A stretch of 64,000 bases of DNA, from assembly GCA_963695095.1 (NCBI GenBank), contig CAVOFT010000001.1, forward strand, positions 2,880,001 to 2,944,000. The letters run 5' to 3'. Source of the DNA: an uncultured bacterium (GTDB lineage: Bacteria > Krumholzibacteriota > Krumholzibacteriia > JACNKJ01). The position numbers and the translations under genes are program-made. Shown piece by piece: positions 51,786 through 53,809 of the stretch (positions within the stretch are counted from its first letter, which is position 1; the number at the start of each line of letters is the position of its first letter). The notes below the pieces were generated by a model that worked only from the letters and a program-made list of their open reading frames with translations, did not search any database and was not told the DNA's origin.

Positions 51786-52810
51786 ATGTCACTGCGGGTC
51801 GGAATCATGGGCTTCGGCCGCATCGGCCGCAATCTCTTCCGACAGGCCGCCCAGCGGGACGATCTCGACATCGTCGCCATCAGCGACCTCGGCGCGCCGG
51901 AAGCCATGGCCTATCTTTTCGAATTCGACACGATCTACGGGCACTTCGACGGCAAGGTCCGCCTGGACGGCAAGTACCTCTGCGCCGGCCGCCAGCGCGC
52001 CCGCCTGCTCAAGGGCGTCGCGCCGGAGGACATGCCCTGGGACGCCTACAACGTGGACGTCGTCGTCGACTCCACCGGCGCCTACCGCGAGCGCGCGCCA
52101 GCTCGAAGGTCACCTGCGCTCGGGCGCCCGCCGCGTCGTGCTGAGCACGCCGGCCCTGGACGCCATCGACCGCACCATCGTGCACGGCGTCAACGACAAT
52201 ACCCTGCGCCCCGAGGACCGCATCGTCTCCTGCGCGAGCACGACCACGCACGCCCTGGCCCTCATGCTCAAGGTGCTCGACGAAGCCGTGGGCGTTCAGC
52301 GGGCGCTGATGACCAGTGTCCACGCCTACTCCAGCGATCAGAAGCTCTCGGATACGATCACGCCCAACCTGCGCCGCAGCCGCAGCGCGGCCCAGAATCT
52401 GATCCCCAACTGGACCTGGTCGCCAGGCGTCGTCGAGACGATGATGCCCCACCTCAAGGGCAAGATCGACGGCATGGCGGTGAACGTGCCCGTGCCCAAC
52501 GGCTCCAACCTCGATCTCAGCATGCAGCTCGGCCAGAGCCTGGACAAGGAGGCCGTCAACGCCATCGTGCACAAGGCGTCCGCCGGGCCCGCTCGGCCGC
52601 TATCTCGAGTACAGCGACGAGCCGATCGTCTCCAGCGACGTGATCGGCAACGCGCACTCGGCGGTCTTCGACTCGCTGGCGACGATCGCCCTGCCCAGCG
52701 GCCTCGTCAAGACGATCACCTGGTACGACAACGGCTGGGGCTACGCGGCGCGCATCCTGGACACGGTGATCACCCTGGGCGCCTTCGAGGCGGAGGAGGT
52801 GCAGCGATGA
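51786..52810 (+). CDS. GAPDH-like paralog lacking the catalytic Cys (frameshifts near 52095 and 52590)
   Basis: GIMGFGRIGR, VVVDSTG, VHGVND, SCASTTTHALA (canonical [11 protein letters not shown]), VHAY, WYDNGWGY; stop overlaps next ATG. Confidence 0.88.
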
Positions 52811-53809
52811 GAATCGGCATCAACGGCTTCGGCCGCATCGGACGCAGCGTGTTCCGCATCCTCGACCAGACGCCGGGCGTGGAGGTCGTGGCGATCAACG
52901 ACATCACCGACAACGACGCCCTCGCCTATCTGCTCAAGCACGACACCGTGATGGGCCCCTTCCAGGGCGAGATCCGCGTGGAGGGCGACGTCATGCGCGC
53001 CGGCAAGCAGACGGTCAAGATGACCGAGATCCCCAGCCCGGCCGATCTGCCCTGGGGCGCCCTCGGCGTGGACTTCGTCATCGAGTCGACCGGCCGCTTC
53101 CGCAAGCGGGCCGAGATCGAGCAGCACCTGGCGGCGGGCGCGAAGAAGGTCATCCTCACGGTGCCCGGCCAAGGACGAGATCGACTGCACGGTGGTGCTC
53201 GGCGTCAACGAAGGCGATCTGAAGCCCGAGCATCGCATCGTCTCCAACGCGAGCTGCACGACGAACTGCCTGGCGCCCGTGGCCAAGGTGCTGCACGAGA
53301 ACTTCGGCATCATCAGCGGCGTGATGACCACCGTGCACGCCTACACCAACGACCAGCGCCTGGCCGACGTGCCCCACAGCGACTGGCGGCGCAGCCGGGC
53401 GGCGGCGGAGAACATCATCCCCACCACCACCGGGGCCGCCAAGGCCGTGGGCAAGGTGCTGCCGGCCCTCGCCGGCAAGCTGGACGGCCTGGCCATGCGC
53501 GTGCCGATCCCCGACGGCTCGATCGTCGATCTGGTGACGGTGATGAGGGAGAAGGTGAGCGCCGAGGAGATCAACGCCGCCATGCGGGCGGCGGCCAAGA
53601 GCGACGGCTTCCGCAACATCCTCAAGTACTCGGAAGCGCCCATCGTCTCGTCGGACATCGTGGGCGATCCGCACTCGTCGATCTTCGACGCGCCCTTCAC
53701 GCGCGTCGTGGACGGCCATTTCGTCAAGACGATCGCCTGGTACGACAACGAGTGGGGCTACTCGAATCGCGTGGTGGACCTGCTTGGCCTGCTCGATCGG
53801 TTGAGCTAG
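52807..53809 (+). CDS. gap: Type I glyceraldehyde-3-phosphate dehydrogenase (frameshift near 53168)
   Basis: [55 protein letters not shown]. Confidence 0.95.

Follow-up and report, generated by a model that had tools for sequence, protein, structure and literature searches.

A GAPDH-like protein that lacks the catalytic cysteine is encoded directly upstream of the canonical gap gene in an uncultured Krumholzibacteriota bacterium and in other bacterial lineages

Few enzymes are as well studied as glyceraldehyde-3-phosphate dehydrogenase (GAPDH), which is regarded as a homotetramer whose subunits are all alike and active. What, then, is the role of a second GAPDH-like protein that lacks the catalytic cysteine and is encoded in overlap with the canonical enzyme? 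This question is raised by a 64,000-nucleotide (nt) stretch of DNA from an uncultured bacterium of the Krumholzibacteriota (assembly GCA_963695095.1, contig CAVOFT010000001.1, positions 2,880,001 to 2,944,000 of the forward strand; hereafter the window, from whose first letter positions are counted unless otherwise stated). We call the upstream gene gapX and its canonical neighbour gap. The gapX gene belongs to a conserved family and is not a decaying copy. Its product is best explained as a folded GAPDH paralog under selection that would no longer be capable of GAPDH chemistry. We put at slightly better than even the further reading that it acts as a non-catalytic subunit, probably binding NAD(H) (nicotinamide adenine dinucleotide), in mixed oligomers with Gap.

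The pair and its junction comprise four features.

51786–52810, + strand: gapX, encoding a GAPDH-like paralog without Cys149 of about 340 amino acids, as read from translations; in three frames in the assembly
52807–53809, + strand: gap, encoding a canonical type I GAPDH of 333 amino acids; in two frames in the assembly
52807–52810, + strand: ATGA, the overlap of the gapX stop codon with the gap start codon
52792–52799, + strand: GGAGGAGG, a putative Shine–Dalgarno-like run for gap, 7 nt 5' of the ATG

The gapX gene starts with MSLRVGIMGFGRIGR at 51786 and ends in EEVQR and a stop codon at 52810. The GGAGGAGG run falls within the final gapX codons, and the C-terminal EEVQR is kept in genus-level relatives. 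An initial annotation had described the motifs, codons and coordinates of the interval 51786–53809, together with the ATGA overlap at 52807–52810, and all of these held when the sequence was read again. The gap gene has all canonical GAPDH motifs (Cys codon at 53255–53257) and is the sole GAPDH gene of the genome, in which matches to Gp_dh_C are confined to the gapX/gap pair. In the nearest relative, genome G001, both genes have orthologues, with 89% identity for gapX (against an intact protein of 340 amino acids) and 91% for gap. The three pieces of gapX match the model TIGR01534 with 86.6, 170.9 and 51.2 bits, and the domain architecture of the orthologue is Gp_dh_N plus Gp_dh_C (PF00044, 106.7 bits; PF02800, 143.1 bits). 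Consensus scans of 51300–54200 returned no promoter-like and no terminator-like site, a simple consensus being uninformative in a high-GC genome.

The replacements that set gapX apart lie at the following positions, for which the roles of Cys149, His176, Arg231 and Thr208/Gly209 are presumed to be those of the Bacillus stearothermophilus enzyme.

52240–52242, + strand: Thr (ACG) at the position of the catalytic Cys149, in the loop SCASTTTHALA; all three bases differ from TGC
52231–52233, + strand: Cys (TGC) at position 146, three residues before position 149; lineage-specific
52321–52323, + strand: His176 (CAC), kept, in the motif VHAY
52408–52419, + strand: NWTW in place of TTTG in the inorganic-phosphate (Pi) loop (T206N, G209W); IPNWTWSP, against IIPTTTGA in gap
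52483–52485, + strand: Asn (AAC) at Arg231, a family-wide signature, in the motif MAVNVP

The protein keeps GFGRIGR, DSTG and WYDN, with the GxGxxG/Asp32 NAD motif intact, and in the Pi loop Thr208 is kept and Gly209 is replaced by Trp. GAPDH chemistry would be beyond it: the thiol at position 149 is gone, as is the Arg231 that holds the substrate phosphate, and the Pi loop contains a Trp. Among the best 120 database homologues (53–91% identity), Asn231 and His176 are present in all 120, and position 149 is Thr in 49, Ala in 36, Ser in 31, Gly in 3 and Cys in 1. Among 51 paralogs examined at their loci, 48 have Asn231 and 47 have His176. In the window's own sub-clade Asn231 (100%), Asn206 (99%), Trp209 (92%) and Gly314 (96%) are strongly conserved; besides Arg231 to Asn, the changes fixed there are N6M, N31S, N180S, T206N, G209W, A211P and E314G. 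Ser148, GxGxxG, Asp32, His176 and both S-loop arginines are kept in 45–49 of 49 paralogs. Thr for Cys149, Asn for Arg231 and the NWTW loop, the three substitutions singled out by the initial annotation, are thus real and beyond chance, recurring in 119 of the 120 best homologues and in the intact orthologues. At four loci (L048, L050 and L052 from Acidimicrobiia/Actinomycetota, and L055 from Thermoanaerobaculia) His176 has changed to Lys or Asp in addition to the loss of Cys149, so that both catalytic residues are replaced.

In the assembly both genes are interrupted, as the initial annotation had hinted in asking for indels to be polished. Three sites are responsible.

52097–52098, + strand: 1-nt insertion breaking the gapX frame after ...GAYRERA; contigs X3, X5 and X6 are one base shorter
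52582–52588, + strand: 1-nt insertion in a GGGCCCG run, the second gapX frame break (near 52585); contigs X1, X3, X5 and X6 are one base shorter
53163–53169, + strand: 1-nt insertion in CCCGGCC, the gap frame break (near 53166); contigs X1, X5 and X6 are one base shorter

Taken at face value, these sites would make gapX and gap a recent pseudogene pair in this organism, with real frameshifts. Three frameshifts fall within 2 kb and none in the five neighbour genes of gap, which give unbroken single-frame matches to the relatives' open reading frames over 339–760 amino acids. Against this stands the nature of the breaks: each is a +1 insertion within a run of G and C, and neither gene has any other lesion. 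The contigs compared come from four public runs of three studies and represent relatives about 90–97% identical to the window, not its own population; every one that covers a site is one base shorter there, with no other indel inside gapX or gap. Orthologues read GAYRERA[Q/L]LEGHL unbroken across the first site and LTVP[A/S]KDEID at the gap site. Reads of the same organism were also sought in public runs, none of which contained more than 16% of the sampled words; two RNA runs contained 7%. Essential genes carry similar breaks in the same assembly (G000; 3.64 Mb, two contigs, 93.5% complete): on its contig 1, in that contig's coordinates and outside the window, rpoB (3153811–3157572) is in four frame pieces, rpoC (3149741–3153696) in two and one copy of fusA (3146187–3148241) in three; dnaK is whole. 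Furthermore, gap is the only GAPDH gene of the genome, and the in-frame ratio of non-synonymous to synonymous substitution rates (dN/dS) is 0.18. The three frameshifts are assembly artefacts, not biology, and a genuine pseudogene pair is highly improbable. The initial annotation had allowed for real frameshifts accompanied by random decay in relatives, and that is not what relatives show, as their frames are open. Random long-read indel noise was considered as the cause and ruled out, since the five less conserved neighbours are unbroken and the breaks cluster in highly conserved genes; this clustering points instead to a consensus or polishing artefact in the metagenome. The apparent pseudogene state of the window therefore bears on how conserved genes of this genome are read: any that appears 'frameshifted' is suspect.

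Of 40 related genomes from the class, 17 have the paralog immediately upstream of a canonical gap. They comprise 10 of the 11 genomes in the window's family, three of six in family f2 and four of five in family f6, with none in the other five families. These 17 paralogs have open frames of 339–346 amino acids, with one locus cut at a contig end. Beyond the class, a scan of one genome per species returned pairs labelled Marinimicrobia, Bacteroidota, Lentisphaeria, Eisenbacteria, Planctomycetota, Acidobacteriota/Thermoanaerobaculia, Actinomycetota/Acidimicrobiia, Bdellovibrionales and Spongiisociaceae, the last a gammaproteobacterial family. The scan is not a census, and because its peptide patterns are common to canonical GAPDH it picks up unpaired canonical gaps alongside paralog pairs; of 80 scanned loci, 32 have a paralog beside gap and two more have a paralog alone on a short contig. 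In total 51 paralogs were collected, 49 of which share a DNA fragment with a partner gap. In every one of these 49 pairs the paralog lies upstream, and in 36 it overlaps gap (29 by 4 nt, six by 1 nt and one by 8 nt); in the remaining 13 the genes are 1–88 nt apart, with start codons picked by a heuristic. The overlap in 36 of 49 pairs argues for a single gapX–gap mRNA. Database entries for gapX homologues read 'glyceraldehyde 3-phosphate dehydrogenase' or 'GAPDH NAD-binding domain-containing protein', and under such annotation metabolic reconstructions of uncultured lineages may count two GAPDHs rather than one.

Some hits are of another kind. GAPDH-paralog-like stretches occur in four long predicted proteins, P0126 (2089 amino acids, four GAPDH stretches), P0137 (1455), P0188 (1862) and P0202 (958), which may owe their length to gene calls that read through or fuse neighbours in high-GC contigs, or may be genuine fusions. 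Locus L095, from a Phycisphaerae metagenome-assembled genome (MAG), has two canonical Cys-bearing gap genes on one strand, 2.5 kb apart (2457–3473 and 6001–7026 of that locus); this is a different, ordinary gap duplication.

Where does the paralog come from? The 52 paralogs, the window's included, form one side of a branch with support 99 (starred) in a FastTree phylogeny of 160 rows, and the branch again has support 99 (starred) in a 96-row IQ-TREE run. When the tree is rooted on distant canonical gap, the sister of this clade consists of 53 rows, made up of every one of the 50 partner gaps and three gaps that have no paralog (support for the parent, 99). Phylum labels are intermixed in this partner-gap clade, and its sub-clades correspond to those of the paralog tree. 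The distances between pairs of paralogs are correlated with those between pairs of partners (Mantel r 0.84; none of 999 permutations as high). The paralog evolves at 1.84 times the rate of its partner, to which it is 38–54% identical (median 44%). The sister relation fits one old tandem duplication followed by inheritance as a unit, and the simplest history suggested by these trees is a single tandem duplication whose products were then inherited, and moved between lineages, together. The three unpaired gaps inside the partner clade are at loci L022 (genome G037), L066 (a Krumholzibacteriia MAG) and L070 (an Azotimanducaceae MAG), and probably reflect secondary losses of the paralog.

Not all members of the clade lack the cysteine. 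Seven of the 52, near its base, keep Cys149 and His176 (family f6, Eisenbacteria and one Planctomycetota MAG), and all seven are already non-Arg at position 231, indicating on the outgroup-rooted tree that Arg231 was lost before the thiol. Cys149 may have been lost once or several times, and we make no case for repeated loss: the quick tree needs at least three changes, the starred branches force just one, and the approximately unbiased (AU) test is compatible with a single loss (p = 0.385). Of the 120 closest homologues, 102 have Cys146; in some relatives the cysteine is at position 151 instead, and the Marinimicrobia, Bacteroidota and Actinomycetota paralogs lack Cys146. Of 142 rows in the window's sub-clade, 103 have Cys146 only, 23 Cys151 only, two both and 14 neither. 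A 'hopping' of the cysteine between positions 146 and 151 was considered and set aside, as the tree has only about four and three changes, respectively, and the paired test is without power.

Selection has acted on the paralog as it has on gap. Pairwise dN/dS values (NG86) among family members are 0.03–0.41 for the paralog and 0.055–0.41 for gap; between the window and G001 they are 0.182 for gapX and 0.184 for gap. The initial annotation had set as a test whether Cys-less copies form one clade under purifying selection, and the 99 (starred) branch and this dN/dS range answer it in the affirmative. The maintained pseudoenzyme that it proposed is likewise supported by the clade, by dN/dS like that of gap, by intact relatives and by the absence of Cys149 from 119 of the 120 homologues.

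Constraint is lost at the substrate loops and kept at the dimer interface. Over 49 pairs, column entropy in the paralog is 1.6 times that in the partner overall, 20 times in the active-site loop (residues 145–157) and 11 times in the Pi loop (204–215). Fifty-one positions are kept in at least 90% of paralogs, including G7, F8, G9, G12, R13, D32, S148, H176 and the S-loop arginines, and the sole difference from the partner consensus among these 51 is Arg231 to Asn (46 of 49). At modelled dimer-interface positions the two proteins are equally conserved (1.02 bits in the paralog versus 0.94 in the partner), whereas the rest of the catalytic domain is relaxed in the paralog (1.72 versus 0.86 bits; p = 5.6e-5). 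Paralog and partner are 57% identical at interface positions, against 43% in the remainder of the catalytic domain.

We folded the G001 gapX/Gap pair, whose proteins are 89% and 91% identical to those of the window, as a complex with alignments. The model scores 0.78 against 0.00 for the best control, a mark attained by 116 of 157 solved complexes and two of 215 mismatched pairs. At least 99% of contacts are shared between runs, and the predicted local distance difference test (pLDDT) score of the partner is at least 91. Because the two modelled chains meet at the dimer interface usual for GAPDH, resemblance to solved GAPDH tetramers may account for the pass; the model shows that gapX would still fit that interface. 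An AlphaFold2 model of the gapX monomer, built from 13 sequences, is mediocre (mean pLDDT 74.2; below 50 at residues 180–209, 234–239, 283–305 and 310–313) and was excluded from fold search and pocket geometry. The best matches among solved structures are 1GD1 and its C149S and C149A mutants 1nq5 and 1npt (E about 1e-110). No natural Cys-less member was found among the 60 best chains listed, all of which are deposited as GAPDH or E4PDH (erythrose-4-phosphate dehydrogenase).

These observations suggest how the pair might work. Both proteins would be made from one mRNA, with ribosomes re-initiating at the ATGA overlap. GapX would then most likely assemble with Gap into mixed tetramers, within which it would be a non-catalytic subunit binding NAD(H) or a metabolite, and it could set the stability or the regulation of the catalytic subunits. 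What the analysis shows is the sequence features, their conservation, purifying selection, a single origin by tandem duplication and co-inheritance with a dedicated Gap lineage; NAD(H) binding, the physical gapX–Gap complex and any regulatory effect are inferred.

Several points weigh against a non-catalytic partner subunit. Partner-clade gaps without a paralog, of which there are three, mean that Gap can work alone. The interface core is nearly identical in the two proteins, so the model cannot tell mixed dimers from homodimers. In the window's sub-clade, Asn6 to Met and Asn31 to Ser beside the NAD motif leave NAD binding short of proof. The conserved new pocket residues would be as much in keeping with ligand binding or a new reaction as with a scaffold, Cys is present at position 146 or 151 in 128 of the 142 sub-clade rows, and the seven basal paralogs with Cys149 and His176 may be active enzymes.

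The first of these points would suit a gapX that is co-expressed with Gap and does not bind it, forming oligomers of its own and serving as a sensor or buffer of NAD(H) or triose phosphate, or moonlighting in nucleic-acid or protein binding. Retention of GxGxxG, Asp32, His176, Ser148 and the S-loop arginines in nearly all paralogs is compatible with such a protein, and a conserved dimer interface would serve homodimers equally. Yet the invariable adjacency of the genes and their frequent overlap, over a very deep tree, exceed what co-regulation usually preserves. The dedicated Gap lineage co-diversifies with the paralog, and the excess of paralog–partner identity at the interface also argues for contact between the two. 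We therefore consider a stand-alone role unlikely.

Less likely again is that gapX is an active enzyme with another substrate or chemistry, using His176 and the remodelled pocket (Asn231, Asn206 and Trp209) and in this lineage perhaps Cys146 as a displaced nucleophile. The strong conservation of the new pocket residues, the prevalence of Cys146 or Cys151 in the sub-clade and the Cys149 of the basal members are in its favour. Against it, position 149 drifts among Thr, Ala, Ser and Gly, constraint on the protein is weakest in the active-site and Pi loops, and 21 of the 51 locus paralogs have no Cys anywhere in residues 145–156, with four of the 51 also lacking His176; Cys146 and Cys151 have changed only about four and three times on the tree. 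The initial annotation had left room for a different chemistry at Cys146. Because those 21 paralogs have no Cys in this segment, Cys146 cannot be the family's replacement nucleophile, and what stands of the idea is narrowed to a lineage-specific cysteine.

With a non-catalytic partner subunit as the preferred reading, the co-inheritance of the gapX–gap pair in many uncultured phyla suggests that the glycolytic GAPDH of the textbooks probably has a non-catalytic partner not yet described. Full-text searches, which stop short of subscription journals, returned no account of a Cys-less GAPDH partner in bacteria. If the reading is correct, it would add a new subunit type to a core glycolytic enzyme across many phyla and provide a bacterial case of pseudoenzyme-based control in central carbon metabolism. 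More tentatively, and at somewhat less than even, glycolytic GAPDH in many mostly uncultured bacteria could be an obligate two-protein enzyme, in which a Gap of the dedicated lineage is joined by a dead, NAD(H)-binding GapX that halves the active sites and imposes allosteric or redox control of flux; the two genes would trace to a single tandem duplication and would have passed from phylum to phylum as one cassette. This analysis contributes the sister relation of the two clades, the members near the base that still bear Cys149, the constraint specific to the interface and the recognition of the frameshifts as artefacts.

The pair is flanked by two genes.

50169–51572, − strand: a protein of 467 amino acids, divergent, upstream of gapX, with a C-terminal FlgD Ig-like domain (PF13860, 28 bits)
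53860–55683, + strand: a DUF4153 membrane protein (78.8 bits), about 50 nt 3' of gap

The FlgD Ig-like domain is often found at the end of secreted proteins, and the 467-amino-acid gene is syntenic in G001 and G002, in both of which the DUF4153 gene also adjoins gap. An open frame of 1301 amino acids (window 51781–55686, + strand) spans both GAPDH genes and the next gene and is not itself a gene; it results from a very high G+C content that leaves few stops, so that all six frames give long open frames.

How does gapX compare with known systems? It resembles type I GAPDH (GapA; EC 1.2.1.12; Geobacillus stearothermophilus, 1GD1) in its two domains, His176, GxGxxG, Asp32, S-loop arginines and dimer interface, and differs from it in having no Cys149, Asn for Arg231, NWTW for TTTG in the Pi loop and Gly for Glu314. 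Five intact gapX orthologues score 307.4–347.7 bits against TIGR01534, under its equivalog cut-off of 367.2 bits, and fall below the cut-offs of all nine GAPDH/E4PDH models, including TIGR01532 (E4PDH; 250.8–296.2 bits, cut-off 530.55), NF010058 (253.1–295, cut-off 539) and NF033735 (ArsJ-associated GAPDH; 244.4–298.3, cut-off 450). Epd/GapB and ArsJ-associated GAPDH are, like gapX, diverged GAPDH paralogs with altered roles, and both keep the catalytic Cys. Unlike Epd/GapB, gapX has no Cys149 and scores under the E4PDH cut-offs, and unlike the ArsJ-associated enzyme it neighbours the FlgD Ig-like domain protein and the DUF4153 protein rather than arsJ.

The chloroplast A2B2 GAPDH of land plants combines two paralogous subunits, one of them regulatory, in one hetero-tetramer; its GapB subunit has full catalytic competence and exerts its regulatory effect by way of a C-terminal tail resembling CP12. 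Entries for this enzyme (PDB 2pkq and 7q53) are among the structure matches of gapX. Unlike chloroplast GapB, gapX has no tail (340 amino acids) and lacks catalytic residues, and its complex is a modelled one. Closer in kind are the non-catalytic paralog subunits GlgD (partner of GlgC in the ADP-glucose pyrophosphorylase of Firmicutes), HisZ (partner of HisG) and the prozyme of trypanosomatid AdoMetDC. In these systems a dead paralog, encoded beside the catalytic one or co-expressed with it, is kept by selection and works within a hetero-oligomer; gapX, which lies beside gap and is kept by selection, would do likewise. Their complexes and effects on activity were shown at the bench, whereas gapX is known from sequence and a model. 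Of the marks of a non-catalytic subunit, gapX has a sister relation to the partner gaps, loss of Cys149 and Arg231, and purifying selection; its co-expression with the partner and a complex that affects the partner's activity are predicted.

Of published work, the closest concerns hybrid tetramers of yeast GAPDH isoenzymes (PMC7017825) and TbGAPDHL of the Trypanosoma brucei flagellum (PMC4106842); a further report deals with Pseudomonas putida and its four active GAPDH homologues (PMC12663938). TbGAPDHL is judged inactive from its lost key residues, the adenosine part of its cofactor site being conserved; it is cytoskeleton-associated and is reported to be much less conserved than the active isoforms and unpaired with an active GAPDH gene. 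In contrast to this eukaryotic protein, gapX experiences selection of the same strength as gap does.

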